Part shown: one piece after another, positions 3,737-53,307 of the stretch | How the letters are laid out: each line of letters starts with the position of its first letter | Numbering within the stretch: the first letter of the stretch is position 1 | Origin: an uncultured Gammaproteobacteria bacterium | Lineage (GTDB): Bacteria; Patescibacteriota; Microgenomatia; Daviesbacterales; UBA10151 | Assembly (NCBI GenBank): GCA_964405655.1 | Contig: CAYOOO010000004.1 | Location: 9,013 to 73,012 of the forward strand | Reading direction: 5' to 3' | DNA length: 64,000 nucleotides | Translations under genes and position numbers: made by a program | The notes under the pieces: model-generated | Database searches by the model: none | Seen by the model: only the letters and a program-made list of their open reading frames with translations | What the model was told of the DNA's origin: nothing

Positions 3737-3754
3737 AACTAGCAACAAACCTTT

Positions 3755-26876: not shown

Positions 26877-28313
26877 ATGCTCAGGCTTCCTACACTAATT
26901 GTTGTTTTTGCCTTTACTATCAGGATTTTATATGCGCTTTATTCACATGATTTTTGGTTAGACGAAGCCTTTAATTTCTTTATCTCTCAAAATGAACCCA
27001 AAACTATTATTTATGCTTTATCTTTTGATAACTGGCCACCTCTTTATTCACTCTTTATGCACTACTGGCAAAAGATTTCAGAAAATTACTTCTGGCTGAG
27101 ACTACCCTCGGTTATATTCGGATCTCTGCTGTTAATAATTATCTATCAAACTTCTAAAAAGTTATTTAATGTTAGTATTGCCTTAGCTGCAATCCTTCTT
27201 GCCTCAGTCTCACCTGCTCTTGTCTACTTTTCAGCTGAAAACCGACCGTATTCACTATTTACACTCCTTACCAGTTTGACAGTTTTACTGTTCTTAAGGT
27301 TAAGAGATAAAGAGTCATTTATAAACTATTTGCTTTTTGTCATCTCTGCAATTTTGACAATTTATACCCACTACTTTGGTCTTTTATTGATTTTGGCACT
27401 AATTGCCTCCTCGAAATTTACCTCTTTTTTAAAGCTAAAGTTCGAGAATATTTTTTCTGCCTTAGCAATAATTATTTTAGCCTCAAGTCCATGGTGGTTT
27501 TATAGTTACTTAAAACCTCATCCAGAGTGTCTTTGTTTACCACCGTTACCGGCGATACTGGCTACTTTCGGTTTTTTTGCAATTGGAGGTAGCGGATTGA
27601 TTAATTTAAAGCATTTTTTCCAAGTTCAAACTCCACTCTTTATTAAGTTGTTTTTAGGTGTATTTATTGCGATATCCACTTTTCTTTTTTTTAGAGGGCT
27701 AAAAAAATTATCAAATAGAAAAGTCCTGTGGCTTTACTTAATTATCTTTTCTTCAATATTATTGATCTTAGTTTTATCTCTCTTTTTTAATATTTTTTCA
27801 GTCAGAAGCTTGATTTTTCTTATTCCGATCTACTTAATTGTAATCGCCATAGCTCTTGACAAGATGGGTAAATTTATTTATCTAAACTTAAGATTTAGAT
27901 TATTATCAATATACTTTGTTACTTTACTAATCATCTTGATAATAACTGTCCAAAGACCATTTTTTAACTTAGAGCCACTTAAGCAGATGTCTGACAAATT
28001 ATCCCAGCTAGACCGACCTCAAACTGCTATCATCCATGCAAATATCTACACCTATTTGCCTGCAAAGTACTACTACCCTACCTCTCGCCAGTCTGTTTTA
28101 AAACCATCTCTGCCTGAGCAATTGTCACATTCACTTAATATCCAAATTCTTGATCAAAAAGTATTGAAAGAAAGCTCACAAATAGTCTTGGTATATGCAA
28201 ATGACCGTTATGATAAACAAAGCTTTGATAATCTTAGAACTATCCTAGTAAATATTAAACATAAATCCGCGAAACATTCTTTGGGAAAGATAAACCTAGA
28301 AATATTTGAATAA
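26877..28313 (+). CDS. GT-C fold membrane glycosyltransferase (ArnT/PMT_2-like)
   Basis: First loop has FWLDEAFNF (a DE motif after TM1). More than 10 TM helices over 478 aa. Confidence 0.55.
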   Translation: MLRLPTLIVVFAFTIRILYALYSHDFWLDEAFNFFISQNEPKTIIYALSFDNWPPLYSLFMHYWQKISENYFWLRLPSVIFGSLLLIIIYQTSKKLFNVSIALAAILLASVSPALVYFSAENRPYSLFTLLTSLTVLLFLRLRDKESFINYLLFVISAILTIYTHYFGLLLILALIASSKFTSFLKLKFENIFSALAIIILASSPWWFYSYLKPHPECLCLPPLPAILATFGFFAIGGSGLINLKHFFQVQTPLFIKLFLGVFIAISTFLFFRGLKKLSNRKVLWLYLIIFSSILLILVLSLFFNIFSVRSLIFLIPIYLIVIAIALDKMGKFIYLNLRFRLLSIYFVTLLIILIITVQRPFFNLEPLKQMSDKLSQLDRPQTAIIHANIYTYLPAKYYYPTSRQSVLKPSLPEQLSHSLNIQILDQKVLKESSQIVLVYANDRYDKQSFDNLRTILVNIKHKSAKHSLGKINLEIFE

Positions 28314-30655
28314 TGAATAAGCGTAATAAAAAAATTGCAATTTTAATAGACCAATTTGTGCTTGGAGGAGTCCAAAAAGCTGCTTTCTTTGAGGCTTTTC
28401 TTTTAAATAAAATTGGTACTAAAGCTAAAATATTAATTTTGATGAGAAGCGGTTTTCAGACAAAGTTCACCGATTACTTCCCTAAAACAAAGTTCAAGTT
28501 TTTATCTGATCATTACCCTAAAATATTTAAAAAATCCATTAAATTTCCGATCTTCTCATTCTTTTCAACGCTCCATTTGCTGGGACCCTTTCTTGCTCCG
28601 CAGGTCGTCAAACCAAAAGATTTCAATATAATCATTGCTCACGGAACCACCACTTGTTTAACAGCTCTGGCGCTCTGGAAGAAACACCGTATTCCATACA
28701 TTGCAGTTATTCATGATCCGATGGAGTACATCTTAAAAAAAGTCTATTTTAATACTCCTCTTAGGTACTTTTTTTGGTTAATATCCCCGATACTTTTTTA
28801 CCTTGAAAAGCAAATTATTAAAAATGCAAAGACCGTAATTGTTGACTCAGAAAAACACTCATCATTTATTCAAAAAAATTATGGAATCAACCCAGAAGTA
28901 TTAACTCTTGGTGCACAACCACTTCTTAGATTGCCAAAGGTCAGAAAAAACTATTTAGTCGCCTCCTCCAGATGGGAATTAGGCAAAAATCCTCAGCTAC
29001 TTTTAGAAATAATGAAATTTTTACCAAATAATAAGCTTTTAATCGTTGGTAACTGGACAAACCCTTCTGATTTATCAGAGTTTAAGCAAAAAATAAAAGA
29101 AAGTAGCTTGGAAAAAAGAGTAATTATCAAAAAAGATGTACCACCAAAACAACTTACCAGAATATACTCTGAAGCCTTGGTCTGGATTCACCCTAATGTT
29201 GAGGCATTTGGGTTGGGAGGATTTGAAGCAGCCTCATGCGGATGTCCGGTAATTATGCCAAAAGGAAGTGGCCTCAATCAAATCTTGAAAAATGGGGTTG
29301 ACGGCTTTTTCCCGGATCAGGTAACTATCGAAGACTTTTTAAAACCTGTTAAATATCTCATATCACATCCTGATATTGCTAAAACCATGGGTTTGCACGC
29401 CTGGAATACTATCAAAAACGGCTTATCTTGGCAAAATCATGTCAAGCAGCTTGAAGGACTAATCAGCTTCTCATTAAATAAAGTAGAGGTGGTTGCTTTG
29501 GAAACTGGACATGCTCAAGGAACTGTTATCTCAGGAGGAGACAAGCTGCTTGAAGAAATGTCTGTCTATTTTTCGCATAATATTGATCTAACTGTAATCA
29601 TCCCAAAAATTGCTGCTTGGCATTGGAGAAGGAGACAAGCTCACATTATTACTCTAAAAGAGACTATTTTTGATAATAACCCTTCCCCTTTTCCAGTTTT
29701 TACAACTTATATTATTCGCATTCTGTCAACCATTAAATTATTAATCAAATTGCAGCCAAAACAAATTCTTTATTCCTCAACAAATGTTTTTCCAGATGTT
29801 ATTCCAGCCTATCTTTTTAAACTGATGAACCCAAAAGTTCGTTGGTTCGCTAGAATTCATCATCTGACACCTCCTCCTCACAAAAGACCTGGAAATTTTT
29901 TAATTAATACCGCTTCTTACTTGCTACAAGAAATATCCCTGGTTGCTCTAAAATATAAGGCAGATCTAGTTGCAGCTCTAAACCCTATGCTAAGAGTTGA
30001 TTTATTGAAAATCGGCTTTAGAAAGGAAAAATTGGTTGTAGTCACTGCCGGAATAAAAAGCAGAAATTTTAAGAAATCCTCCAAACTAGTCTCAAAACCC
30101 TATGATGGAGTATTTTTAGGTAGAATGCACCCTTCTAAAGGAATTCTAGATTTAATTCCAATTTGGAGCTCTGTTTGTAAAATATTACCAGAGGCTAAAT
30201 TGGTAATTATCGGACAGTCAAATCCGGCTATAACCCAATCCTTATATAAACAAGCAAGTGAATATAATTTCCTAAAGAAAAATGTTCAAATTCTTGGACC
30301 CCTGTCAGATAATAAGGTTCAAGAATATTTAACCCGTTCAAAACTTTTTTACTTCACTGATCATGAAGCTGGATTTGGACTTGCTGGACTGGAGGCTATG
30401 TCACTTGGGCTACCTGTCATCGGTTGGGACATCGGAATCTTAGGAAATGTCTTTAAAAAAGGTTTTATCAAAATTAAGCCCTTTGATTACAACCAGTTTG
30501 CCTTAAAAACAGTTGAACTTCTGCAAAATAACTCTAAGCTAGGATATTTATCAAAACAAGCAATCATCGAAAGCAAAGAACACGACTGGAAAAAAGTAGC
30601 TGTTGGATTTGAATCTCTGTTGTATAAGCTAGCGTCAAATAGTGTGCATAAATGA
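28313..30655 (+). CDS. Fused double GT4 glycosyltransferase (two group-1 GT domains)
   Basis: Two separate EX7E-like motifs: EAFGLGGFEAASCGCPVIM at about residue 300 and AGFGLAGLEAMSLGLPVIGWD at about residue 690. Total length 780 aa. Confidence 0.6.
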   Translation: MNKRNKKIAILIDQFVLGGVQKAAFFEAFLLNKIGTKAKILILMRSGFQTKFTDYFPKTKFKFLSDHYPKIFKKSIKFPIFSFFSTLHLLGPFLAPQVVKPKDFNIIIAHGTTTCLTALALWKKHRIPYIAVIHDPMEYILKKVYFNTPLRYFFWLISPILFYLEKQIIKNAKTVIVDSEKHSSFIQKNYGINPEVLTLGAQPLLRLPKVRKNYLVASSRWELGKNPQLLLEIMKFLPNNKLLIVGNWTNPSDLSEFKQKIKESSLEKRVIIKKDVPPKQLTRIYSEALVWIHPNVEAFGLGGFEAASCGCPVIMPKGSGLNQILKNGVDGFFPDQVTIEDFLKPVKYLISHPDIAKTMGLHAWNTIKNGLSWQNHVKQLEGLISFSLNKVEVVALETGHAQGTVISGGDKLLEEMSVYFSHNIDLTVIIPKIAAWHWRRRQAHIITLKETIFDNNPSPFPVFTTYIIRILSTIKLLIKLQPKQILYSSTNVFPDVIPAYLFKLMNPKVRWFARIHHLTPPPHKRPGNFLINTASYLLQEISLVALKYKADLVAALNPMLRVDLLKIGFRKEKLVVVTAGIKSRNFKKSSKLVSKPYDGVFLGRMHPSKGILDLIPIWSSVCKILPEAKLVIIGQSNPAITQSLYKQASEYNFLKKNVQILGPLSDNKVQEYLTRSKLFYFTDHEAGFGLAGLEAMSLGLPVIGWDIGILGNVFKKGFIKIKPFDYNQFALKTVELLQNNSKLGYLSKQAIIESKEHDWKKVAVGFESLLYKLASNSVHK

Positions 30656-31815
30656 ACAGGGGAAAAAAAATATCAATTGCTATCTTAACTGAAGTTTTAA
30701 ACACTCATTCAGGCTCAAGAGCTCCAATTGAACTATCTCTTGCCCTAAACAAACTAAACTCTAAAAAAATCGAGCTTTATCTAGTGTGTTTCAGTTACAA
30801 ACTAGATAAGAAGCTTAAGAAAAAATTAGAGTCTCAGAATATAAAAATATTTATTTTAAGAGTTAATAACTTATCTTTTCTATCAAAACTCAAAGCCAGC
30901 CTTAAGCTTTTTGAAATATTTAAAAAAAATTCAATTGATACTATCTTATTCCATGGTTCACTACCGATGTTTTTGATTGCCAGAGTGTTTAAAAAGCCGA
31001 TTATTACTACTTACTATGGAACACAATTTAATGCTTTTGAGGAAAAGTTCTTACCTAACGAAAAGATCTCTCTTTTCCAGAAATTAATAAATCAGTTAGG
31101 AAACTTAGCAATATATGTCTTTCAAGCAGTACCAGTACTTTTATCCAACAAGGTGGTAACCATGACTAAATATGGTAGCGATGAATGCTATAAATTATTT
31201 AGAAGGAAAGTCGGTTTTATATATCAGGGTGCTGATTCAGATAGTTTAAGATCATTAAAATCAAAAGTCGTCAATAAAAATTCTCAAATTACCTTTATCT
31301 CAGTCAGCCGTATTACACCATACAAGGGTTTCCATATTTTAATCAAAGCATTTAATGGTCTACAGCCAAATAAAATAAAAAGAAGACTTATTATTGTTGG
31401 TTCGTCTGTACGCAAAAGATATTTAGATTATTTAAAAGCGTTAGGAGATAAAAATGTTTATTTTTTTACTGATATATCTGATAAAAAATTAATAACTCTT
31501 TATTCCAAATCAAATATTTACATAGGTGCTGACAGATATCTTTTTTTTGGTCTACCACCCTTAGAGGCTGCGAAGTTTGGAATTCCATCAATTCTGATGG
31601 ACTACTGTTCAGCAAGAGAGATAGTAGAAAATAACGAGACTGGATTTGTTGTAAATTCTGATTCAGAGTTACGAAATAGAATGACAGAACTAGCAACAAA
31701 TGTAAAACTTAGACTAAGCATGGGTTTTGCTGCAAAAGAACGCACACAAAAATTATTCAGGTGGGAAGAAACAGCCAAAAAATACTACAGCCTGATTAAA
31801 AATCTTAATTCTTAA
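30652..31815 (+). CDS. GT4 (group 1) glycosyltransferase
   Basis: FFGLPPLEAAKFGIPSILMD motif. Length is 387 aa. Confidence 0.65.
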   Translation: MNRGKKISIAILTEVLNTHSGSRAPIELSLALNKLNSKKIELYLVCFSYKLDKKLKKKLESQNIKIFILRVNNLSFLSKLKASLKLFEIFKKNSIDTILFHGSLPMFLIARVFKKPIITTYYGTQFNAFEEKFLPNEKISLFQKLINQLGNLAIYVFQAVPVLLSNKVVTMTKYGSDECYKLFRRKVGFIYQGADSDSLRSLKSKVVNKNSQITFISVSRITPYKGFHILIKAFNGLQPNKIKRRLIIVGSSVRKRYLDYLKALGDKNVYFFTDISDKKLITLYSKSNIYIGADRYLFFGLPPLEAAKFGIPSILMDYCSAREIVENNETGFVVNSDSELRNRMTELATNVKLRLSMGFAAKERTQKLFRWEETAKKYYSLIKNLNS

Positions 31816-32494
31816 ATCCCACTATAAATAAAGTCCCACAAAATTGTAAAATTGGGCAGAAGATAGGCTTAATTGTACTTCTAATACCAACCTTACTTAA
31901 AAGGTTCCTTAATCTTGGTGATGGAGGGAAACCAAAGGAAAAACATCCTTGAATCCTGATATCTTTAAACCCAACTCTTTGAAATGATTCTTTCCAAAAT
32001 TTTGCGCCCTTAACATTTATGTGGGTCGGATCATATGGTAATAATACTTTCCCTAGTATAGTACCCTCTAGATCCCCATTAGGGGTTGAGGCTAAGAATA
32101 TCCCTCCCTTATTTAATACCCTAAAAGCCTCAGCAATTACAAAATCTGAGTTCTGAGTATGTTCTAGCAGGTCAAAAGCAGTTACTGCATCCAATAAACT
32201 ACCTTTAAATGGCCACCTATCCTTAGACACATCTACAATTTTGACAGTAGCTTTGGTTCTCTTTCTTGCCTGAGATACAGCATAATCAGAAATTTCCAGA
32301 CCGAAGGTTTCGATATTTGCCTGGTCACAGAAACTTAAAAACTCACCAAGCGCGCAACCAACGTCCAGAATACTGCCTATCTGTTTTTTTCTTGATAACA
32401 GAAACTTGAGATGATATTTTAAGATCTGCTCTCGCTCATTGCTTTCTAACTTATAAAAGTCATCAAAATACTTTTTTCCGTAGCTATTCCCCAT
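31805..32494 (-). CDS. Class I SAM-dependent methyltransferase
   Basis: ILDVGCALGEF motif I and LASTPNGD (motif post-II). Length is 229 aa. Confidence 0.7.
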   Translation of the reverse strand: MGNSYGKKYFDDFYKLESNEREQILKYHLKFLLSRKKQIGSILDVGCALGEFLSFCDQANIETFGLEISDYAVSQARKRTKATVKIVDVSKDRWPFKGSLLDAVTAFDLLEHTQNSDFVIAEAFRVLNKGGIFLASTPNGDLEGTILGKVLLPYDPTHINVKGAKFWKESFQRVGFKDIRIQGCFSFGFPPSPRLRNLLSKVGIRSTIKPIFCPILQFCGTLFIVGFKN

Positions 32495-35400
32495 CTTCTT
32501 TTTGCCACCAAGTTGAGGCTTTTTTATGAATTAACCTTAATCCCTTCTTTGATAATCGAACAATCAGAAATCCCCTAAACAAGATTAAGTCAATTAGAAT
32601 TAAAATCGTTGCCAAAGAGATCAAATGATATATTTTCCATCTGATACCACCAACAAATTCAAATTTGACTTCTTTAGGTTTAACATCTTGAGAGAAAGGA
32701 ACATACATATAACCCGGGTAAGTAGGTCCAGCTTTGTATAGAGTCAAGCTCTTGCCACTCTCAGATTTTGCTTTCCAGCTGTCATAAAGCTCTTCTTTAA
32801 ATAGCACTCCTCTACTTCCTGCTGAATCTACTTCTCTTTTCTCAGGAGATATGAATCTATAGTTGAAATTACCAATTTTCTTTTCTGAAATATCGACTCC
32901 GGAAAAAAGCATATTAATCAAAAATTTAGTTTCTTCCTCGTTATAATCCCGGATTGCATGATATGGTAAATTAAACCCGGTCCAAATTAGATTACCTGAT
33001 CCGATATCGATTGAAGCAGCCACAACCTTGCCGTTGTTTTTTAAGATAACTTTTGCTTCTGATTGAACAGCGCTATCGCTATCTGGGTGTGAAACATTCC
33101 AAGGTTTTCCGTCAAAATCTAAAGGAGAAAACTTGTCAAAAGATATCCCTTTAGTTAGATTACTATCTGCAGTTTCGACTTTCCAATCTCGCCCAATATT
33201 ATTTCTGATAGTATGTTTAATTGGTAAGATATCGGGTAAATTACTGCTGGCAGCTTCTTTTCCTTCAGGTCCGGTATCAATGTAGATCCGCCCGCCTTTC
33301 TCTAGATACTTTGACAGTGTCCCCCAGGCTTTTGATTTATTTTTATAATCATAGCGGTACAGTATCACCTTATCAAACTTCCTTAGCTCGCCCAGGCTAT
33401 AATCATCGATAAAATTTGATTTTGTAGCAATTACAATCTTTTGGCTATTTAAATTGCGCATGCCGATAAAACGGTAGATTGTGTCATAAGCGACTGCATC
33501 CCCAATTAGTAATATCGGACTAGCATTATTGGGTGCCAGTATTGGCGAAACCAATTCAGGTTTAACACGGTAATATTTTAGTGTCTGGGTTAAATCAGGA
33601 AAGAACTTTCCTATTTCTTCTGGTTTCGGACCATAACGCCTAATTACTCCTAATGATTTTACCTCTTCCTCTTCTGCTACATAATCTTTGGTTGTGACAT
33701 GTTCTGCCAATACTGAGGGCGAGCTGCTGGCATAATTTCCTAAATAGTAATATACGGAATTCCAATCAAGAAGAAATTTGGTATTTTCATAAGCCACGTT
33801 TTCAGGAGTTTTCCAGTCAATAATCAGTGAGGCTTTGGCATCCTTGCCTGATGGCCCCATCAAAGAGTCTAGCCAGAATAGTCCCCATCTTTGAAGGGTG
33901 TTAACCGGAGGGTCTACATAGCCTCTTGCCAAAGGCATATCATATAGCATTGGCCACCATAAATTAACCGTGGCATCAACTGTATAAAGTCTTTTATTCT
34001 TGTCGTTTGGATCTATAAACTTAGGGGTCAATTTTTGAGCTATTTCCTTCATTTCAGCATCGGAAGTTTTAACATTCAAAATATCAGGATATGGACTAGA
34101 TGCTGTGGATAATAAATCTATCCGGGCGATTAAAGCCTTGGTTAAACCCGGTGTAAAATATAAATATCCAAAAACTATAAAAAATACATTTGCCACAACT
34201 AGAGTTGTCCAGGAAGTTATCTTGAAAAATTTAACCTCACTAAACCTGTTAAAAGCTAGCGATATTTGTCCCCAAAATACTGCTGCTAAAGAAGCAGCAG
34301 CCACCGGTATAGGCCAAAAGGCTTTGTACCAACCAGTAATGAATAGATCTATGCCTCTTGAAAACAAAAATATCGTGATAAACTGATAAATCAAAAAAAT
34401 TGCAAAAGGCAAGACACACAATATACTTCTTAAACGATGCTTGCGGAATATGATTGTGACAACAAAGCAAAGAGCAAATATCCCTACCAAATACCAAATT
34501 AACTGCTGCGTATCATTTAATACATAATTGAATTGGTCATGGCTCCATTTAATAATATTGGCGGCAGTTGATCCTTCTACCGGACCGCTTTCTAATGTAT
34601 GGCGATTTATTAACGAATTAGAAAATATTGAACCAACCTTTCCTAGATAGGAAAAAAGTGTGGCAGGTAGTGTGCTGCTAAAATTTGATAAAACTCCAGG
34701 CAGACCAACTAAAAACCAAAGTACAACAAAGACAATCAAATTTTTGATTCTTTGACCGAATTTTAATCCTTCCCTACCGCTGTAAAAGAGTAAAATCAGG
34801 ATGCTTAAAGGAATAATAACGTTTAAAAAAGCTTGCGGGTGTCCCAATAACCCGAGTCCAGCTGCAATACTGGCCAAATATAACCATCTCTTTTTATATG
34901 TATTCAAAAATCTGATTAGTAAGAAACCAACTAACGGGTAGAAGGCTTGGGTAGACCAGAAAGGAATACCGCCAGCCCAAACTAAGGCCCGATACAAATT
35001 TACAGATAAAATAGTCGCAATAGTTAAAACCAAAGACAAACCAGCGTTAAAAGAAAGCTCCTTGTAGAAAAAATAGCAAGAGATGGCAAAGATCAGTAAA
35101 AAGAACACAGCAAAATGCATCACTCCTTGAATTAGTCCAAACTTTTCTATAAAGGGAATCATCCCTAAAAAATACAACGATGGATAATCTAAAGAGAATG
35201 GTTGTCCTCCAAACCAAAAATGTTTCCAGGCAAAGGGCCTTAAGAAATCATGCCACTTGATCATGTAACTGGTATAAGTTGCAGATAAAAATAAATCTAT
35301 TCCTCTGACTGGATTTTTTGTTAGATACCAGCTGATAACAGGTTCTAAAGTTTTATAAACTATTCCCGCTGCAGCAATATTTATCAGTCCGCTGACTGAG

Positions 35401-35561
35401 AATAAAATCCATCTGAGTATTCTTATATGGATTTTTTCTTCTTTTTTAACTAGCTTCAAAACGTCACCAGATAGTTTCTCAACATCTTCCTGAATTTTTG
35501 CTTCATTTAGTTTTAGAGAGTCAGTAGTATTACTCATCTTCTTTCTGCCACCATTTACCAA
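32484..35561 (-). CDS. Giant polytopic membrane protein (GT-C-like N-terminal TM domain + large extracytoplasmic domain + C-terminal TM)
   Basis: 1025 aa. About 13 TM helices in the first ~450 aa, then a soluble domain with WWPMLYDMPLARGY, and a final TM (LISLATILILIDLILF). Paralog of the adjacent 973-aa gene. Confidence 0.5.
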   Translation of the reverse strand: MVNGGRKKMSNTTDSLKLNEAKIQEDVEKLSGDVLKLVKKEEKIHIRILRWILFSVSGLINIAAAGIVYKTLEPVISWYLTKNPVRGIDLFLSATYTSYMIKWHDFLRPFAWKHFWFGGQPFSLDYPSLYFLGMIPFIEKFGLIQGVMHFAVFFLLIFAISCYFFYKELSFNAGLSLVLTIATILSVNLYRALVWAGGIPFWSTQAFYPLVGFLLIRFLNTYKKRWLYLASIAAGLGLLGHPQAFLNVIIPLSILILLFYSGREGLKFGQRIKNLIVFVVLWFLVGLPGVLSNFSSTLPATLFSYLGKVGSIFSNSLINRHTLESGPVEGSTAANIIKWSHDQFNYVLNDTQQLIWYLVGIFALCFVVTIIFRKHRLRSILCVLPFAIFLIYQFITIFLFSRGIDLFITGWYKAFWPIPVAAASLAAVFWGQISLAFNRFSEVKFFKITSWTTLVVANVFFIVFGYLYFTPGLTKALIARIDLLSTASSPYPDILNVKTSDAEMKEIAQKLTPKFIDPNDKNKRLYTVDATVNLWWPMLYDMPLARGYVDPPVNTLQRWGLFWLDSLMGPSGKDAKASLIIDWKTPENVAYENTKFLLDWNSVYYYLGNYASSSPSVLAEHVTTKDYVAEEEEVKSLGVIRRYGPKPEEIGKFFPDLTQTLKYYRVKPELVSPILAPNNASPILLIGDAVAYDTIYRFIGMRNLNSQKIVIATKSNFIDDYSLGELRKFDKVILYRYDYKNKSKAWGTLSKYLEKGGRIYIDTGPEGKEAASSNLPDILPIKHTIRNNIGRDWKVETADSNLTKGISFDKFSPLDFDGKPWNVSHPDSDSAVQSEAKVILKNNGKVVAASIDIGSGNLIWTGFNLPYHAIRDYNEEETKFLINMLFSGVDISEKKIGNFNYRFISPEKREVDSAGSRGVLFKEELYDSWKAKSESGKSLTLYKAGPTYPGYMYVPFSQDVKPKEVKFEFVGGIRWKIYHLISLATILILIDLILFRGFLIVRLSKKGLRLIHKKASTWWQKEDGE

Positions 35562-38451
35562 TATTAAAGCTAAGCTTATTTAGCTTCTTAAAGAATACTA
35601 ACCTCATAATCCTGCCTCCTAATAAGTAATCTAATATCAGAATTAAGATTACTGATGTTAAGATTGAATAAAGCAGCGTAAAGGTATCTCCTTTGTAGTT
35701 GAATTCAACCTCAACTGGTTTATCTCGAAGCTGTGTCGGAATCGGAACGTACATAAATCCTGGACCCGTTGGGCCCGCAGCTAGGATTTTTTGACTTTGA
35801 CCATTAATCTTAGCGGTCCAGACTGGCCAAAATTCTTGCCTTAACAGCACTGCTTTGGCATTTTGTGTTTTGATCTTAATCTTGCGGTTGCTGATAAATT
35901 GGGCTTGCGAGGGCGGAGGATCATTTTTTTCCAGCGGAACTAACTGAGCGATTAATGACCTGACAAATTCTCCTTCCTTGATTGATTTATAGACATTGGC
36001 ATGATAGAACAGGTTCATTCCACTCCAAATTACTTTGCCACCCTCAAAAGATCCACTAACAATCAAGGGTGTATTACCGGTTTTTAGTATAACCTCAGTA
36101 TTATTCTTTAAATTCGTTGGTAGTGAAAAGTTCCACTCTTTACCATCTATAACTGGTGGTCCAAAATCTTTTAAATCCCAGCTTGTCCCCAACTCCTCCC
36201 TCTTTGTGCCTTCTATTGGGAAAAAATTCGGCAGGTGAGTATTTTTAGTTTGGAAAACATCACTGCCTGTTTCTACAAAAACTTTGCCACCTTTTTTGAG
36301 ATACTTTTCTATTTTACCCCACCCTGAATTATTATCTCCATCTTTATATCCGTATAATATGACAGCATCCAAATTAAGATTTTCTAAATTAGGAATTTTT
36401 GCAAGTGAGGGGGAAAGCCAGACTGTAACAAGTTTCTGTGAGTTTGTATTAGTTATGGCTAAGCTTCTGTTAAAAGTTTCAAAGCTACTAAACGAGCCGA
36501 TCATGCCAACAACCGAGGCGTTGGTAGCTGATGCAACTGGTGAAGCCAAACCCTCTTTGAATTTATAAAATTTCAGCGCATCGCTATCATCATTAATCCA
36601 TTCCATTTTGCCATCTTTGGTATCGTAAACCTTAACTCTTCCGGCGATAGGAGTTTGCTCTTCTTTTTCAAAAATATTTTTATCCTCGAGTAAGAAGCTG
36701 GATGGCGGGTTGAAAGAGTCACTCCTCTCGTGACCACCTTCGAAAAAGCCTATTGAGAACCAATCAATTAAATATAGCGCGTTGTTTTTAGCAATATCTT
36801 TGGGGTACTTGAAATCATCAACAATCGGATCCCTGCCCTGATTTGAAGCTAAAGCAATATCAGTCCAAAAAAATGACCCTGCCATACCTGAGCCAATTGG
36901 AGAATCGGTATAACCTCTAAACAGTGGCATCTCATAAAAAGTCGGCCACCAAATATTGACTTTCTGGTCAGCGCTATACAGACGGTATTGGTAATCTCGT
37001 ACTGGAAGCCAGGCTGGAACTAGTTTTTGGCTTAATCCTTCAAATTCCTTGCGGTCCTTAAACGGCTTACTAAGTAAGCCAGGGTAAACTCCAGATTTTT
37101 CCCTGAACCTGACAGTATCTAACTGTCTATCAGTAAAATCTTCCAGGGGTTGCTGTTTACTCCAATAAAAATATCCTGATGCCAAAATTACAGCTGTGAA
37201 TGCTATTGCCAGAATACTTTTTGCAGCTAAACTATCAAGGAGGCCGGTCCGCTCTATTAAAGAAGCCCAAAACATCCGGTATCCATAAGCAACACATGCT
37301 CCAAATGCCAAAGGCATTGCCCAAAAAGCTCGATACCATCCTCCCTGAAAGAAAGGTATTCCTATAGAAAGTCCGTAAATTGACAAAAAGGCAAACCCCA
37401 AAAACATTAAAAAAGGGAGCGCACCCAATACTCTAAATCTTTTCTTTGCTATAACTAAACCAATAACCATTAAAGCAATTGCTACTGCAAAAAACGCAAA
37501 AAATATTTCATTTACTTCAACTAAAAACCTCCAAAACTCTTGTCTGTTATAGGCTGCGATTGCTTTAATGGTTTCAATCGGAGTAGTACTGGTAACTGCG
37601 GAACCATAATCAGGATTACTGACAGATCCTGAAAATCTAGTTAGGACAGCATTAATTTGATTTAGAATAAATTTGGGTAATAACAGAATATTCTGTCCAA
37701 AAAATTGTTGTAGCTGAACATAGGATGTTAGGACAACTAAGCCAAGAAAAATTCCTAGGTCTAAAAGCCTTCTTTTAATTGTCGCCTTAATTTTTTCAAA
37801 GTAGCCAAAAGCAATAATTAGAAAAGCAAATAATAAGATGTGTGAAATCAATATCTGCGGGTGAGCCAATGTAGAAAGTCCTGCGACCGCAGCAGAAAGC
37901 ACTAAAAATTTTCTGGTAGTGCTTTGAGTATACAAAACTAAAAAAGCAATCGAAAGCGGTAAAAATGTCATTGTTCCAACATATTGCAAGTTACCTCCCC
38001 AAATAATCGGACCCCAACTGGCTCTGGAATATATACTAAAAAGCGCCAAAACCAAAGATAATGCTTTATTTCTGGAAATGACCCAGAATAAAAAGTAACT
38101 GCTTAGACCAAAAGAAAATAGAGATAGCACAGAATATATTAGAGTTGCTTGTTGAACACCAAAATATGGTACTAATAAAGCATTCAGGTAAAAATGGAGG
38201 GACGGGTAATCGTATGCATACGGATACCCAGCCCAATTAATTGGTTTATAACCTAAGTAACGAGCATCGAAATGACGGGAATAATATGCTACGTTAGATA
38301 CCATGTTATAAAAGTCGACTCCGAGAATAACAGGATGATTGATGTACCAATTAGAAATAGGTAAAAATAGAAATACAAGTAGTGCAATAGCAGATACATG
38401 AGTTGTCAAATGAAATAGAACGCTTGCTACTACTTGTGATAATCTTTTCAT
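35530..38451 (-). CDS. Giant polytopic membrane protein, tandem paralog of 32484..35561
   Basis: 973 aa with the same architecture. Shared motifs: WWPTFYEMPLFRGY, GFMYVP, C-terminal KWWQKEDE (versus WWQKEDGE in the paralog). Confidence 0.5.
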   Translation of the reverse strand: MKRLSQVVASVLFHLTTHVSAIALLVFLFLPISNWYINHPVILGVDFYNMVSNVAYYSRHFDARYLGYKPINWAGYPYAYDYPSLHFYLNALLVPYFGVQQATLIYSVLSLFSFGLSSYFLFWVISRNKALSLVLALFSIYSRASWGPIIWGGNLQYVGTMTFLPLSIAFLVLYTQSTTRKFLVLSAAVAGLSTLAHPQILISHILLFAFLIIAFGYFEKIKATIKRRLLDLGIFLGLVVLTSYVQLQQFFGQNILLLPKFILNQINAVLTRFSGSVSNPDYGSAVTSTTPIETIKAIAAYNRQEFWRFLVEVNEIFFAFFAVAIALMVIGLVIAKKRFRVLGALPFLMFLGFAFLSIYGLSIGIPFFQGGWYRAFWAMPLAFGACVAYGYRMFWASLIERTGLLDSLAAKSILAIAFTAVILASGYFYWSKQQPLEDFTDRQLDTVRFREKSGVYPGLLSKPFKDRKEFEGLSQKLVPAWLPVRDYQYRLYSADQKVNIWWPTFYEMPLFRGYTDSPIGSGMAGSFFWTDIALASNQGRDPIVDDFKYPKDIAKNNALYLIDWFSIGFFEGGHERSDSFNPPSSFLLEDKNIFEKEEQTPIAGRVKVYDTKDGKMEWINDDSDALKFYKFKEGLASPVASATNASVVGMIGSFSSFETFNRSLAITNTNSQKLVTVWLSPSLAKIPNLENLNLDAVILYGYKDGDNNSGWGKIEKYLKKGGKVFVETGSDVFQTKNTHLPNFFPIEGTKREELGTSWDLKDFGPPVIDGKEWNFSLPTNLKNNTEVILKTGNTPLIVSGSFEGGKVIWSGMNLFYHANVYKSIKEGEFVRSLIAQLVPLEKNDPPPSQAQFISNRKIKIKTQNAKAVLLRQEFWPVWTAKINGQSQKILAAGPTGPGFMYVPIPTQLRDKPVEVEFNYKGDTFTLLYSILTSVILILILDYLLGGRIMRLVFFKKLNKLSFNIGKWWQKEDE

Positions 38452-38557
38452 CAGACAGAATTAATTAAATAATTGTTTTGATAGATTTTCCTCTTCAGTT
38501 GTTATACCATAACAAGATCAAATCTTAAGAGTCAAGTTATATTAATCAGGCTATAGA

Positions 38558-39256
38558 ATGAAGCTTTCTATAATAATTCCGGTTTATAACGAAGAACAAA
38601 CCGTTGGTCAGGTCATATCGAAAATCAGCAAGTTAGAGTTAGGTAAAATTACTAAAGAAATTATTGTTGTTGACGATGCTTCTACAGACAAAAGTAAAAG
38701 CATAATTAATGAACAAAAAAAATTAAATCCCAATACACTTAAGGTCTATATCTCTATAATTAACCTGGGAAAAGGAGCGGCAGTTCGCTTTGGTTTAAAG
38801 TATGCAACTGGGGATATAATCATTATTCAGGATGCGGATTTAGAATTAAATCCAGCGGAATATCCCAAATTGATATCACCAATTATTGAAAATCAAGCTG
38901 ATGTAGTTTATGGCAGCAGGTTTAAGGGTTTTAAAAATGAAAATATTCCTCTTAGAACAATCCTGGCAAATAAATTTCTGGTCATTTTAACTAATATTTT
39001 GTTTAAGGGTCATTTAACAGATATGGAAACCGCTTATAAAGTTTTTAAAAGCTCTATAATAAAAGATGTCAACTTACGCTGTGTCGAATTCGATTTCGAA
39101 GCAGAAGTCACAGCCAAAATTCTTAAGGGTGGGTATAAAATAGTCGAAATTCCGATTGAATATAAACCACGAACTCCGAAAGAGGGTAAGAAAATGACTT
39201 GGCGGCATGGCATTGAGGCGATTTATACATTATTTAAATATCGTTTTTTTGATTAG
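38558..39256 (+). CDS. GT2 polyprenol-phosphate glycosyltransferase (DPM1/ArnC-like)
   Basis: LSIIIPVYNEEQTV...VVDDASTD...IIIQDADLE (DxD). Short (232 aa) soluble GT-A typical of Und-P/Dol-P sugar synthases. Confidence 0.7.
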   Translation: MKLSIIIPVYNEEQTVGQVISKISKLELGKITKEIIVVDDASTDKSKSIINEQKKLNPNTLKVYISIINLGKGAAVRFGLKYATGDIIIIQDADLELNPAEYPKLISPIIENQADVVYGSRFKGFKNENIPLRTILANKFLVILTNILFKGHLTDMETAYKVFKSSIIKDVNLRCVEFDFEAEVTAKILKGGYKIVEIPIEYKPRTPKEGKKMTWRHGIEAIYTLFKYRFFD

Positions 39257-46603: not shown

Positions 46604-48166
46604 TTAACTGCCCTTTTTAGAAAAAATCTTATTTGATAAGTAATTTAGGGTGATGCTTCTAACCAAAACTAAATCTTTAATTATCTCTTTTTTCATGAAA
46701 ATATATATCAGTAGAGTGTATAAAAATAATCCAAATAGTAGAAAAGCTAACAAACTGATAAGGTTGTCTACTTTATATAAACTTTTCAAGACCAAGATGC
46801 TCAAACCAGTTAAAATAGACAGAATAAGTGGTGGAATAAAGATTCTCAAATAACTAAATGTAAAATATCTGTAAACTCTAGATAGAGTGACAAAAGTGCT
46901 TATGGATACGATCACCATTGCCAAATTAACACCCCAAAATCCAAATATCATCACCAGAGGAACTGTTAAAATCCATTGTAATATCGAGACAATCAAGTAG
47001 AAGTTACGATAATATTTAACTTCTCCCAGTGCTAAGAGTGTATTGACAACTAAAGCATTAATGGCTGTCAAACTGGTTTGGATAATGGCTAAATTTAAAG
47101 ATGTCAAACCATCTAACCAGCGTTGACCATAGATAAATCTTGTTACTTCAGAGGATAATACTAATACTAATGATGAAAGTCCAAACGTAGATATTAAAAT
47201 AATCTGCATAAATTTGCTAAATATCTTCTCTGCTAATTTAAGATTATGTTGCAACCTTGACATCAGAGGAAAAACTATTTGGTCAATAATAGATGCCAAG
47301 ATTGACGGAACTGCAGCTACTCCCCCAGCCCAGGTAATAAGTCCAACTGCTTCTGCTCCACTTAAGTGACCTGGTCCTGGAAATCGGCCAATAAAAACTG
47401 CGATAATTGCACCATTGAATAGTCCAACAATTGTGGTGAGTTGAAAAGAAAGTCCAAGTTTGAAAATTGACTTAAGCTTATTAAAATTAAAGCTAAATCC
47501 GAAAGGCCATGGGTAAAGAAGATAGTAAACTAATAATTGAACGATCTTGCTTAAAGTATAGGCATAGACAAAGCTCGCTGTTCCTAATCCCCAAATTGCA
47601 AATAGAATCGTTGAATACTGAGTGGTGAATAAACCTGTAACCTCACCAATAACACTTCTTCTGTATAGGAGGTGTCTCTCTAGTAGGTTGGGTGAGATAG
47701 AATTTAAATTGCCAATTATATTGGCAAAGACTAAAATCCTTAACCATCCTACTGCTTGCTTTTCTAACTCTCCCCCATAGAAAGATAAGATCAAAGGACT
47801 TAAACTCCAGATAAGCGCTCCAATAAGCAAAGCTAAGAATAAATGAATCCACCAAATGCTTCGCAGAAGAACCTTGTCAGGCTCTTCTTTCATTTGGATA
47901 ATTACTCTCCCTAACCCTAAATCTGCAAAAACCCAAAAAAAGGTTAAAGTAAATTGAATTATGGCAAACATTCCAAAATCTTGAGGAAAAAGTATTCTAA
48001 CTAGAATTAGGTTAGAAAGAGTTATTATTGCTTGATTAACAAATTTTTTAAAAACCAGCCAGCTAAGACTGGTTAGAATTAATTTTTTTACCTTCTTTTT
48101 AGAGTCAAAGTTCCAGATTAATACTAAATTATTCTCTTCTAATTGACCCTGAGAGTTATTTGCCAT
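46604..48166 (-). CDS. wzx: Wzx-type oligosaccharide flippase (MOP/polysaccharide biosynthesis protein family)
   Basis: 520 aa with about 14 TM helices. The N-terminal segment SWLVFKKFVNQAIITLSNLILVRILFPQDFGMFAI is typical of Wzx/RfbX. Confidence 0.55.
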   Translation of the reverse strand: MANNSQGQLEENNLVLIWNFDSKKKVKKLILTSLSWLVFKKFVNQAIITLSNLILVRILFPQDFGMFAIIQFTLTFFWVFADLGLGRVIIQMKEEPDKVLLRSIWWIHLFLALLIGALIWSLSPLILSFYGGELEKQAVGWLRILVFANIIGNLNSISPNLLERHLLYRRSVIGEVTGLFTTQYSTILFAIWGLGTASFVYAYTLSKIVQLLVYYLLYPWPFGFSFNFNKLKSIFKLGLSFQLTTIVGLFNGAIIAVFIGRFPGPGHLSGAEAVGLITWAGGVAAVPSILASIIDQIVFPLMSRLQHNLKLAEKIFSKFMQIILISTFGLSSLVLVLSSEVTRFIYGQRWLDGLTSLNLAIIQTSLTAINALVVNTLLALGEVKYYRNFYLIVSILQWILTVPLVMIFGFWGVNLAMVIVSISTFVTLSRVYRYFTFSYLRIFIPPLILSILTGLSILVLKSLYKVDNLISLLAFLLFGLFLYTLLIYIFMKKEIIKDLVLVRSITLNYLSNKIFSKKGS

Positions 48167-49729: not shown

Positions 49730-51103
49730 ATGGGAAACCGGACTGCTAAATTTTTGCGCATCCTCGGGCTTATTCTATCACTTGTTAGTATAGGGACTTT
49801 TATTTGGTTTTTTAATATAAGCAGAGCGACTAACCCAGAAATTAAACTACTCATTTTATCTTTAGGAATTATAATCAACTTTGCTACCATAATCTGTCTT
49901 CTAAAACTAAGTTTGCTTAAGCGTTTTCAATCGATTCTTTTTATTTACCTCTTCATAGTCACCTTTTATCTTATTGTTGAAACTCCATTATCATGGATTA
50001 GCTGGGTGGCTGGATGGGATAGTAGCTGCTGGCTTTTTGAGGATTCAGGTAAAACAATCAGATTCGATCCAATATTCGGTTACAGATTAGAAAAACAGCC
50101 TTCAAGATATGCCAGGATCACCAAACATTACTTAGAGTATGTCGGAATTCAAAAAGGAAATAACTTAGGTTTTCCGGATGATAGTCAATTTGAACCAAGA
50201 AAAGATCGGGTTGGCTTAAAAAGAATTGTCGTATTTGGTGACTCGTTTACTTCAGCCCAATATATTGCTGAAAATTGGCCTCAGCATAGTGAAATTTTAC
50301 TTCAAAACCAAGGATATCAGGTTGAGCTGATGAATTTTTCTCAGGAAGGTATTGGTCTTGCTAACTGGTGGAGAACATTAACTGAGGTTATAGAAAAAGA
50401 CAACTACGAAATCGACGGTATTATCTTTGCTGTTTTCAGAGGGGATCTAAAGAGAAAATTTGTTTTTGCCACCCATCAAAATAATCCTCATCCTTTATCA
50501 GGTCACTTAGATAGATGGCTACCAACCTACTACCCAGCTACTTTAGCAGAGGCAAAAAAGGCTATGAAACCTCTCAGCGAAGCAGTCATTGTCGATTCTA
50601 GTGTTTTTGATAAGGCAATTGGGACTACTCATTGTCCTTTTCAGGTTTCTCAAAAATTCAAACCTTATCTTATGGAAAAAGTGAATATTCAACTTGACCT
50701 AATGCTTCATAATTTTAATAAGGCCAGCGTCAATACTGTTAATAGTAATTTAAGCTACCAGGAAGCTTCAGATCGGCAGAGAATCATCGCCTCAATCAAA
50801 GACTTTCTTACCAAAAAAGGTCTGTCAAGTTTAGTTGTATATATACCTTCAAGAGAAGAAGAGACAAATAAGGCCAGCTCCTACTCGCCTGCTGAATTTG
50901 ACGATACTAAAAAATTTAGTCAAATTCTCGGCTCCTCATTTATAGATGGTAGGGAGCTTTATGCTAAAATGTCAAAAAAAGAGATTAAAAATAGCTTTTT
51001 CCCCTATGATGGTCACTGGAATCAGCTTGGATCAAACCATTTTGCAGATTACATAAGCAGACAGATACCTAATGTTTTCTCTTTAACCAAAGAGTCTAAA
51101 TAG
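49730..51103 (+). CDS. Membrane-anchored SGNH/GDSL-family hydrolase (probable glycan O-acyl esterase/transferase)
   Basis: N-terminal TMs, GDS block IVVFGDSFTSAQY, and a C-terminal DGHWN (DxxH catalytic dyad). Confidence 0.55.
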   Translation: MGNRTAKFLRILGLILSLVSIGTFIWFFNISRATNPEIKLLILSLGIIINFATIICLLKLSLLKRFQSILFIYLFIVTFYLIVETPLSWISWVAGWDSSCWLFEDSGKTIRFDPIFGYRLEKQPSRYARITKHYLEYVGIQKGNNLGFPDDSQFEPRKDRVGLKRIVVFGDSFTSAQYIAENWPQHSEILLQNQGYQVELMNFSQEGIGLANWWRTLTEVIEKDNYEIDGIIFAVFRGDLKRKFVFATHQNNPHPLSGHLDRWLPTYYPATLAEAKKAMKPLSEAVIVDSSVFDKAIGTTHCPFQVSQKFKPYLMEKVNIQLDLMLHNFNKASVNTVNSNLSYQEASDRQRIIASIKDFLTKKGLSSLVVYIPSREEETNKASSYSPAEFDDTKKFSQILGSSFIDGRELYAKMSKKEIKNSFFPYDGHWNQLGSNHFADYISRQIPNVFSLTKESK

Positions 51104-51549: not shown

Positions 51550-53307
51550 ATGTATATTTTAGGAATCTCCTGTTTTTATCACGACTCGTCAGCAGCTTTG
51601 CTTAAAGACAGTGTGATTATTGCTGCAGCAGCACAAGAGAGGTTCTCACGGATCAAACACGATACATCTTTTCCCACCGATGCTATCAATTTTTGTCTTA
51701 AGCAGGCTGGAATTACCATCGAGGAAATAAATTATATCGGTTTTTACGAGAAACCTCTTTTAAAATTAGAAAGAATACTATATCAACATCTCGAAATGTT
51801 TCCTCTGAGTTTAAAAACTTTTTTGTCATCTATGCCCTCTATTTTAAGCCAAAAATTGGCAGTAGTCAGTCTGATAAAAAAAAGGCTGGGATTTAAAAAA
51901 GCTGTCTTTTTTATTGAACATCATCTAGCTCATGCTGCCAGCTCATACCTACCCTCCTCTTTCAACAAAGCAGCTATAGTTACTTGTGATGGTGTGGGAG
52001 AATCGACAACCACCAGTTTTGGGATAGGGTCTGGAAATGACATTAAACTACTTAAACAAATAACCTTTCCTCACTCATTAGGTCTTTTGTATTCAACTAT
52101 TACTGCTTATTTAGGTTTTAGTGTCAATAATTCGGAATATAAGGTTATGGGACTTTCCGCTTATGGGGATAATAACTCAAAAACTAATAAATACTACAAA
52201 AAACTTAAACAAATAATTGATATAAAAAGTGATGGTAGTTACCACTTAGATATGGATTATTTGAATTATCACTTCAGTGACAAAATGCCTTCAAAAAAAC
52301 TTTGTCAATTGCTTGGCGGACCTGTTAGGAAGCCACTTGACCAAATAACTAACCGTCACCAAGATATTGCTGCAGCTGCCCAATTAATGCTTGAAGAGGT
52401 TTTAACAAAAATTTTCCAGTTTGTCCAAAAAACTACAGGTGAGGAGAATGTGGTTTTTGCAGGAGGAGTAGCATTAAATAGCGTCTTCAATAGCAAGATT
52501 CTGAGTAAAACCAAGTTTAAAAATATTTGGATTAGCCCTGATCCTGGAGACGGAGGAGGTAGCGTTGGAGTATGTTGTTATATCTACAATACCATTTTAG
52601 GCAAAAAAAGAATTACTCTTGATAGTGCTTATCTAGGCCCTAAATTTTCTTCAAAAGAGATAGAAAGATTTTTACTTAAAAACAAAATAGTGTTTAAAAA
52701 ATTTAGAAACAAAAAGCAGCTGATAGAAAGATGCGCAAGACTTATATTTGAAGATAAAATCCTTGGCTGGTTTCAGGGTCAGATGGAATGGGGCCCTAGA
52801 GCACTTGGAGCGAGGAGTATTTTATCAAATCCTTGTAATCCAAATATAAAAGAAATACTAAACACAAAAGTTAAGCATCGGGAAAAATTCAGACCATTTG
52901 CACCAGTTGTTTGTCAAGATGACACTAAGCTATACTTTGAAACTGGCTCAGATACTTCAAAGCTGAGCGATTTTATGTTGACGGTTTATCCGATTAAGAA
53001 AATTTGGCGCAAAAAAGTTCCAGGCGTAACCCATATTGATGGTAGTGGCAGGCTACAAACTATTAAAAGAGCTCAAAATCCCCTTTTTTATGACCTGATA
53101 AAAAGATTCGGTCAGCTTTCAGGGGTCTCTATGCTAATAAATACCTCATTTAATATTCGTGGTGAACCAATAGTTTGTACACCTTTGGATGCTTACAAAT
53201 GCTTGATGGGAACAGGGATTGATTATTTAATTATGGGTGAGTTTTTGGTAAAAAGAGATGATAACTCAAAAGATTTTTGGGATAGTGAAAAATATGCAAA
53301 GGACTAA
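51550..53307 (+). CDS. Carbamoyltransferase, NodU/NolO/CmcH family
   Basis: N-terminus MYILGISCFYHDSSAALLKDSVIIAAAAQERFSRIKHD is the conserved Kae1/YgjD-like fold of carbamoyltransferases. Length is 585 aa. The C-terminal domain has GGVALNS and GPRALGARS. Confidence 0.85.
   Translation: MYILGISCFYHDSSAALLKDSVIIAAAAQERFSRIKHDTSFPTDAINFCLKQAGITIEEINYIGFYEKPLLKLERILYQHLEMFPLSLKTFLSSMPSILSQKLAVVSLIKKRLGFKKAVFFIEHHLAHAASSYLPSSFNKAAIVTCDGVGESTTTSFGIGSGNDIKLLKQITFPHSLGLLYSTITAYLGFSVNNSEYKVMGLSAYGDNNSKTNKYYKKLKQIIDIKSDGSYHLDMDYLNYHFSDKMPSKKLCQLLGGPVRKPLDQITNRHQDIAAAAQLMLEEVLTKIFQFVQKTTGEENVVFAGGVALNSVFNSKILSKTKFKNIWISPDPGDGGGSVGVCCYIYNTILGKKRITLDSAYLGPKFSSKEIERFLLKNKIVFKKFRNKKQLIERCARLIFEDKILGWFQGQMEWGPRALGARSILSNPCNPNIKEILNTKVKHREKFRPFAPVVCQDDTKLYFETGSDTSKLSDFMLTVYPIKKIWRKKVPGVTHIDGSGRLQTIKRAQNPLFYDLIKRFGQLSGVSMLINTSFNIRGEPIVCTPLDAYKCLMGTGIDYLIMGEFLVKRDDNSKDFWDSEKYAKD

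Follow-up and report, generated by a model that had tools for sequence, protein, structure and literature searches.

A tandem pair of giant, putative GT-C glycosyltransferases from a divergent branch of PF10131 in a surface-glycan locus of a Daviesbacteria genome

A model in which a lipid-sugar synthase of the GT-A fold, a flippase and a glycosyltransferase (GT) of the GT-C fold act together has been reviewed (PMC8035078) and is also described elsewhere (PMC5836110); larger GT-C enzymes that possess outer acceptor-binding domains have been described in the case of AftD and proposed for YfhO of S. aureus (PMC8035078). Here, we analysed a window of 64,000 nucleotides (nt), by which we mean the whole stretch of DNA considered (positions 9,013 to 73,012 of contig CAYOOO010000004.1, assembly GCA_964405655.1), deposited as an uncultured Gammaproteobacteria bacterium and placed by GTDB in the Daviesbacterales. 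In it, two adjacent genes, hereafter A and B, each encode a membrane protein of about 1000 amino acids (aa). We propose that A and B are outward-acting GT-C glycosyltransferases which use polyprenyl-phosphate (monophosphate)-linked sugars to decorate a surface glycan, a reading to which we would assign a probability of roughly 50-60 %. By analogy with the larger enzymes named above, their outer domains would be built-in acceptor-binding modules. The locus follows the same logic as the multi-component systems composed of a CsbB/GtrB-type GT-A protein, a flippase and a YfhO- or PMT_2-type GT-C protein, as the window contains a family 2 glycosyltransferase (GT2), large GT-C proteins and a flippase. 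It differs from them in that none of 25 members of the A/B family matched YfhO (PF09586) at E ≤ 1, no GtrA-type flippase was seen in the locus, and the GT2 adjoining the pair lacks the C-terminal transmembrane (TM) helices of GtrB and CsbB.

The pair and the gene that follows it are arranged as listed:

35530..38451, minus strand: gene B, an open reading frame (ORF) of 973 aa with a GT-C-like membrane domain, an outer domain of ~470 aa and a C-terminal TM helix
35608..35676, minus strand: C-terminal TM helix of B (about aa 926-948)
32484..35561, minus strand: gene A, a 1025-aa ORF from TTG; likely true start at the ATG 35537, giving 1017 aa
31805..32494, minus strand: methyltransferase dependent on S-adenosylmethionine (SAM) (Pfam Methyltransf_23, E 5.9e-19), third gene of the putative operon

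BLASTP joined A and B in a single end-to-end colinear alignment (29 % identity over ~1010 aligned columns, E 3e-122); the two are full-length paralogs, far beyond chance. An earlier note on this DNA had called the two genes duplicates and quoted several shared blocks, and both statements hold: all the quoted motifs were located by regular expression at equivalent positions, namely WWPMLYDMPLARGY at residues 535-548 of A and WWPTFYEMPLFRGY at 501-514 of B, GYMYVP in A and GFMYVP in B, and WWQKEDGE and WWQKEDE as the respective last residues. In the alignment, B also shows the family's invariant residues, and its orthologs (P0025-P0031) share 52-80 % identity. A is residue-identical to HYS93_01435 at NCBI, a "hypothetical protein" of a Candidatus Daviesbacteria bacterium, and because that protein has 1017 aa, the ATG at 35537, which encodes residue 9 of the listed ORF, is most likely where A begins. 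With this start, the B stop and the A start overlap by 8 nt, while the methyltransferase start overlaps the A stop by 11 nt. B, A and the methyltransferase look like a single translationally coupled operon, divergent from the GT2 at 38558..39256. The opposite strand carries no ORF of at least 100 aa within A and B. Promoter and terminator scans yielded no excess over shuffled expectation; the sole well-placed promoter-like candidate (38535..38506) falls into the intergenic gap between B and the GT2.

Several lines of evidence make it highly probable that A and B are GT-C glycosyltransferases, and they centre on one part of the protein:

34152..35423, minus strand: membrane domain of A with GT-C fold (residues 47-470), for which 11 TM helices are proposed

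An AlphaFold2 model of A, computed from a 25-sequence alignment (mean predicted local distance difference test, pLDDT, 82.9; predicted TM-score, pTM, 0.79), was matched by Foldseek to STT3, AglB, AftD, PglB, ArnT and DPY19 with a probability of 1.00 each. In fold searches the membrane domain falls among the PMT, STT3/PglB/AglB, Aft, ALG and ArnT enzymes, that is, it is a multi-pass membrane domain with the GT-C helical fold. Furthermore, hhalign aligned the TM profile of the family to one of PMT_2 proteins, for which database homologs of a GT39-like protein of the window (26877..28313) had been used, with 93.4 % probability (E 2.5e-7, 352 columns). As the Foldseek matches are joined by this structure-independent profile match, the GT-C assignment is well supported. 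Aligned singly to the PMT_2, GT87-like and other membrane proteins of the window, a comparison that proved too insensitive, the TM profile stayed below 16 % probability, except with the protein 53524..55650 described below. When A, B or the family profile was compared with the PDB, by sequence or by profile, nothing meaningful came up, an NCBIfam search returned nothing for A or B, and neither these two nor their relatives matched STT3 (PF02516). The fold searches thus support the interpretation of the earlier note, which had pictured enzymes of the GT-C type that bear a large domain on the outside and a TM helix at the C-terminus, and no profile match to a non-glycosyltransferase family, which would have spoken against it, was found.

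PMTs have 11 TM helices, the same number as we propose for A and B. Like A and B, the PMTs (Pmt1-Pmt2/Pmt4, GT39; PDB 6p2r, 9e61) carry an acidic residue after TM1 in the first outer loop, and the A/B family shows remote profile-profile homology to PMT_2-type proteins. One of the top structural matches, 6p2r, is a complex of the two paralogs Pmt1-Pmt2 and offers a precedent for a paired enzyme. In contrast to the PMTs, A and B lack a MIR domain, possess a G-x-D instead of a D-E motif, do not match the PMT or PMT_2 hidden Markov models, and carry their large outer domain after the last core TM helix rather than in a loop.

The acidic residue of the first outer loop is encoded at the following positions:

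35295..35297, minus strand: codon of A Asp89 (RGID), candidate catalytic acid
38314..38316, minus strand: codon of B Asp46 (LGVD), the equivalent of A Asp89 in the alignment

Conservation was evaluated in 131 full-length representatives with a mutual identity of ≤50 %. The position of D89 is occupied by Asp in 125 of them (95 %), G87 is kept in 97 %, and the G-x-D motif sits 8-17 residues after TM1; the conserved acidic residue that had been anticipated for this loop is hence present as D89 in A and D46 in B. The membrane domain also keeps G119 (100 %, in W-x-x-x-W-x-x-G-x-P), G197 (in WAGG), H241 (95 %, in GHPQ) and W416 (in GGWYKAFW), and both paralog clades retain the motif residues of this domain, B with D46 and H197. 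D89 is likely the positional equivalent of the catalytic Asp of solved GT-C enzymes.

A model of 11 core TM helices plus one C-terminal TM helix was built from predicted helices and hydropathy, with heuristic helix limits. In this model, 2.2-6.5 Lys/Arg fall to four segments on the inside, namely the C-terminal tail and the three inner loops that follow TM6, about one or fewer to the two shortest inner loops, and none to the short outer loops; moreover, every conserved motif (GxD, WxxxWxxGxP, WAGG, GHPQ and GGWYKAFW) comes to lie in an outer loop. We favour this 11+1 arrangement, in which the active-site loops and the large domain would be extracytoplasmic. Of the topology suggested in the earlier note, the C-terminal TM helix is present, whereas for the core, given there as about 13 TM helices, helix positions and charges favour 11. 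The A clade, and not the B clade, additionally has a charged N-terminal, putatively cytoplasmic helix of ~35 residues before TM1 (window 35424..35537, A residues 9-46), which spans residues 14-81 in the model and is also found in P0003-P0006; it could be a docking site for cytoplasmic enzymes.

The outer part of A, with the equivalent tail end of B, can be divided as follows:

33534..34112, minus strand: juxtamembrane outer subdomain of A (residues 484-676), with the WWP...MPL.RGY.D loop
32892..33533, minus strand: Cys-less class I glutamine-amidotransferase-like (GATase1-like; ThuA/GIFT-like) alpha/beta domain of A (residues 677-890)
32571..32879, minus strand: beta-sandwich (including PGYMYVP) plus C-terminal TM helix of A (residues 895-997), from model secondary structure and hydropathy
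32571..32639, minus strand: C-terminal TM helix of A (aa 975-997)
32487..32570, minus strand: K/R-rich, putatively cytoplasmic tail of A, ending in WWQKEDGE
35533..35553, minus strand: equivalent tail end of B, WWQKEDE

The juxtamembrane subdomain holds the strongest conservation of the soluble part (R524 99 %, P543 95 %, G547 93 %, Y548 89 % and D599 98 %, together with W536), and in isolation it best matches the soluble domains of GT-C enzymes. Its WWP..MPL.RGY.D loop is of low pLDDT whether the whole protein or the subdomain by itself is modelled, which would fit a loop that becomes ordered against the membrane domain or the substrate. An equivalence of this loop to the WWDYG motif was considered and rejected at the level of sequence, as the motif differs and its first Trp is variable. 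The GATase1-like domain carries GG(K/R)(V/I)(F/Y)(I/V)(D/E)TG and NLPYH...E877; since it is devoid of any Cys, and with it of a Cys-His-Glu triad, a true amidotransferase function was rejected. Judged from NLPYH...E877 and the invariant Trp, this domain may instead be a binding module. Conserved Trp residues are distributed over the distal domains (W793, W821, W860, W929), and in the beta-sandwich region W929 (98 %), G945 (96 %) and Y953 (92 %) stand out. OST48 has a single C-terminal TM helix with a short tail after its domain, an arrangement which recurs in A and B. Compared with the GIFT/GATase1-like domains of IFT52 (N-terminal domain), OST48/Wbp1, ThuA-like proteins and STM3548, the domain of A and B is fused to a GT-C catalytic subunit; the likeness is one of a very common fold, with no sequence relationship shown.

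The earlier note could not place the two proteins in a named family. A, however, scores 33.8 bits against PF10131 ("PTPS_related", for 6-pyruvoyl-tetrahydropterin synthase-related membrane protein; gathering cut-off 26.4, E 1.7e-8), and 21 of 25 aligned relatives match the same profile at E ≤ 1 (best 1.6e-13). PF10131 is listed in the Pfam GT-C clan CL0111 by HHpred analysis, with its function recorded as unknown (PMC7801869). Most family members match its soluble part (profile 474-621, the GATase1-like region), whereas the TM part (profile 1-281) is matched only in some distant members, not in A or B: with E 4e-7, P0046 passes the cut-off, while two others reach about 0.003-0.005. Because the N-terminal part of PF10131 is matched by these distant TM domains, the A/B family reads, as far as profile matches tell, as a divergent, colinear branch of PF10131. 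Within PF10131 it is a very divergent branch, with B and several relatives below threshold, and it is set apart by its length of ~1000 aa, a C-terminal TM helix and a conserved WW(x)KEDE tail.

Word-indexed searches returned 24 relatives of A and seven of B, all of 860-1015 aa and all unnamed, from Daviesbacteria, Curtissbacteria and metagenome-assembled genomes (MAGs) labelled only as unclassified "bacterium". In an exhaustive profile search against 1.84 billion cluster representatives, 999 proteins reached E ≤ 1e-3 and 550 reached E ≤ 1e-30; among the 150 matches listed, most have 870-1000 aa and the rest are fragments of ~280-750 aa or longer proteins of 1100-2159 aa. Names attached to family members are "hypothetical protein", "type 1 glutamine amidotransferase" (IMG) and "response regulator", and the latter two labels appear to mirror only the fold of the soluble domain. 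The taxonomic range, as sketched here with at least five loci from a pattern-based scan of genome contigs, takes in Daviesbacteria, Curtissbacteria and Chloroflexi. In Chloroflexi, two adjacent members (P0101/P0102; MBI4318638.1/MBI4318639.1) of 1106 and 2159 aa, one of them annotated "response regulator", are 45 % identical to each other and thus stem from an independent tandem duplication.

The order B-then-A, again with an overlap of the two genes, is found in at least four other genomes (L001, L002, L003 and L006). The first three are Curtissbacteria and one contig titled Gammaproteobacteria, with orthologs that are 54-80 % identical. The proteins of L001 (CAZFVS010000009.1) are about 79-80 % identical to those of the window's Daviesbacteria locus, in the same gene order, and this MAG, labelled uncultured Gammaproteobacteria bacterium, is probably mis-binned or misclassified. 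L006 belongs to a more distant lineage; its downstream gene is clearly of the A type (781 versus 443 bits) and its upstream gene lies somewhat nearer to the B clade (610/530 bits, versus 465-535 bits to A-type proteins). The two genes overlap there as well, and a Wzm/Wzt-type ABC exporter with a Wzt_C domain stands alongside (2761..4888). As the order recurs across these lineages, the duplication predates them and the pair has been kept as a pair; as L006 has a Wzm/Wzt exporter and the window a Wzx-type flippase, the pair is not tied to a single export route. Methyltransferase orthologs (52-56 % identity) directly follow the A-type gene in L002, L003 and L004, and in the set of L001-L003 the pair is succeeded by the methyltransferase and then a convergent block of double GT4 and PMT_2 genes. 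In the window this block extends over 26877..32494 and is syntenic with the B-A pair across the window, L002, L003, L004 and L006. Besides a PMT_2 GT-C gene and the methyltransferase 31805..32494, its members are, in the window:

28313..30655: fused double GT4 (780 aa)
30652..31815: GT4

The synteny suggests a conserved functional module that would be larger than A and B.

In our proposed mechanism, the N-terminus of each protein would be cytoplasmic and about 11 TM helices would form the GT-C core. The active site would face outward around the Asp of the first outer loop (D89 in A, D46 in B), a conserved His (H241 in A) and further motifs of the outer loops. A juxtamembrane domain of the type seen after the last TM helix of STT3/AglB/PglB and AftA/AftD would supply a flexible conserved loop (WWP..MPL.RGY.D, R524, D599), while the acceptor would probably be held by the Cys-less GATase1-like domain and the beta-sandwich, both rich in conserved Trp. 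The final TM helix would anchor the outer domain, and the short basic tail behind it would remain in the cytoplasm. A polyprenyl-phosphate-linked donor would be synthesised at the inner side of the membrane, where the adjacent GT2 may be its source, and would reach the other side by flipping; there, outside the cell, its sugar would be passed to a surface glycan or glycoprotein that the ~40-kb locus around the pair produces. A and B probably cooperate, be it within one heteromer or one after the other with distinct specificities for linkage or sugar, which is suggested by the retention of the pair, the overlap of the genes and the intact motifs of both copies.

Several observations weigh against this proposal. 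In the profile alignment with PMT_2, D89 falls into the same loop as the W-x-D-E motif, yet four residues off and in a stretch of low confidence, and a second acidic residue, D125 (of DYP, noted in the CPR, or candidate phyla radiation, clade), is only 56 % conserved. The HMMER match of A to PF10131 covers only 75 residues of the soluble domain (713-787), and B has no Pfam match by itself, its membership following from paralogy with A. In the literature on PF10131, DUF6541 and GT-C proteins in CPR bacteria we found neither a functional study nor an experimentally characterised member, and membership in PF10131 therefore gives no function. The GT2 at 38558..39256 is not conserved beside the pair in other genomes, which leaves the donor assignment weak, and the evidence for a heteromer comes down to conserved gene order and overlapping genes.

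The alternative that survives best, which we nevertheless hold to be unlikely, is that A and B are ligases of the oligosaccharyltransferase (OST) type, which would move a complete glycan, assembled on polyprenyl-diphosphate and exported by a Wzx or ABC system, en bloc to a wall polymer or to a protein such as an S-layer protein or a pilin, rather than transfer sugars one at a time from polyprenyl-monophosphate. STT3, AglB and PglB resemble A and B in having a globular domain after the last core TM helix, and the juxtamembrane domain resembles, if weakly, the C-terminal globular domains of STT3/AglB, including the structures of soluble domains only (3vu0, 2zag, 5aza); a conserved Trp-containing loop ~50 residues after the membrane domain is likewise shared. 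The loci also carry a Wzx-type flippase (the window and L005) or the Wzm/Wzt exporter with Wzt_C (L006), and the window encodes no recognisable Wzy, WaaL or initiating phosphoglycosyltransferase. However, A and B lack the WWDYG, DK and MI motifs of these enzymes, the conserved loop being WWP..MPL.RGY.D with a variable first Trp, and have a proposed 11+1 rather than 13 TM helices; they add the GATase1-like and beta-sandwich domains and the C-terminal anchor, do not match the STT3 profile of Pfam and show no conserved second acidic (DxD-like) position. Moreover, equally good scores were obtained for the PMT and Aft enzymes, whose donors are monophosphate-linked.

Less probable again are processive extracytoplasmic polymerases akin to mycobacterial Emb/Aft, which would build a homopolymer side chain while the growing chain is held by the distal domains. 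The embCAB genes are tandem paralogs, as are A and B, and the size of ~1000 aa together with the tandem arrangement recalls embC-embA-embB; AftD, AftA and AftB, too, are giant GT-C enzymes with large outer domains, and the conserved Trp residues of the distal domains (listed above) would suit the holding of a chain. Against this, A and B have no Pfam or other sequence-profile match to the Emb/Aft families, their distal domain is GATase1-like instead of the carbohydrate-binding module (CBM) of Emb/AftD type, and lineage and wall chemistry are unrelated; on processivity, our data have no bearing.

A bolder idea, which we regard as a long shot, is that B-A constitutes a lineage-specific heteromeric oligosaccharyltransferase of CPR bacteria (and Chloroflexi), in which the STT3-like catalytic membrane domain and juxtamembrane domain of each subunit would be fused to a domain of the OST48/GIFT type and to a C-terminal anchor, and which would glycosylate S-layer or pilus proteins with the methylated, carbamoylated glycan of the locus. 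If true, parts of the eukaryotic OST complex would have a bacterial counterpart made of a single chain. Finally, that A and B are non-enzymes, namely membrane scaffolds or exporter accessories like GldG/GIFT-domain proteins which merely retained a GT-C-like membrane domain, fits the ABC exporter beside the pair in L006, yet appears very improbable, as about 130 diverse relatives and both paralog clades keep H241, the Asp of the first loop and the remaining motifs of the outer loops almost without exception, a pattern that fits a preserved rather than a decayed active site.

Our preferred reading, in which A and B would act outside the cell on monophosphate-linked donors, is in keeping with the surrounding gene neighbourhood. 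A single glycan-biosynthesis island of ~40 kb spans ~17.4-59.5 kb of the window and contains at least eight GT2 and five GT4 genes (one being the 780-aa double GT4), an RmlD, at least six SAM methyltransferases (with starts at 21160, 25001, 31805, 40497 and 48992, plus one more in the locus), three PMT_2 GT-C genes, one GT87-like gene and two more membrane proteins distantly related to A and B. The following features deserve individual mention:

38558..39256, plus strand: GT2, 232 aa, divergently transcribed (PF00535, E 2e-33)
46604..48166: Wzx-type flippase
49730..51103: AlgX-like SGNH protein
51550..53307: carbamoyltransferase
53524..55650, minus strand: membrane protein, 708 aa, no Pfam match
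57659..59491, minus strand: membrane protein, 610 aa, no Pfam match

The flanking GT2 had been described as of the polyprenol-phosphate-sugar synthase type. That a PF00535 GT2 adjoins the pair is correct; its best NCBIfam matches, to the polyprenyl-phosphate glycosyltransferases AglJ (1e-30), PgfS, PpgS and ArnC, are partial and all far below the equivalog cut-offs, and relatives near the pair occur only in L005 and L004 (27-33 % identity, 1.5-7 kb away). That it supplies the lipid-linked donor is plausible, if weakly supported. The gene content points to a locus glycan that would be rich in methyl and carbamoyl groups and may also be acetylated; in L007, the family member P0024 likewise has a carbamoyltransferase and several methyltransferases in its vicinity. 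Among the proteins of the window, we recognised no initiating phosphoglycosyltransferase and no Wzy- or WaaL-type protein.

Of the two additional membrane proteins, 53524..55650 is distantly related to the membrane domain of A and B (hhalign 95.6-96.9 % over ~180 columns) and has Glu in the G-x-D position. Both proteins contain W-x-P-x-W-Y-L-G-x-P-F, and homologs of both adjoin an A-like gene in L005. A protein of 201 aa (59484..60089, minus strand) shows a weak, exosortase-like match below the cut-off (PF09721, E 7.7e-5). Its neighbour of 978 aa (60950..63886, minus strand) was considered as a third paralog and rejected (hhalign 0.7 %, no Pfam match).

The GT-C fold class, PF10131 and its placement in the GT-C clan were already known, and GT-C genes in glycan loci of CPR bacteria were to be expected; nothing known on GT-C enzymes is overturned by our analysis. 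What it adds is the PF10131/GT-C assignment of a divergent branch with about 1000 members, a candidate catalytic Asp, a domain anatomy and the conserved B-A pairing, for a family that amounts to ~1000 clusters at 50 % identity in public data and had no function assigned in the sources searched. These results offer starting points for a first biochemistry of PF10131-type GT-C enzymes and for correcting their annotation. For the organism, a tiny CPR genome devotes about 40 kb to a surface-glycan locus in which at least seven membrane enzymes are GT-C-like, and surface glycans or glycoproteins are therefore probably important to this bacterium.

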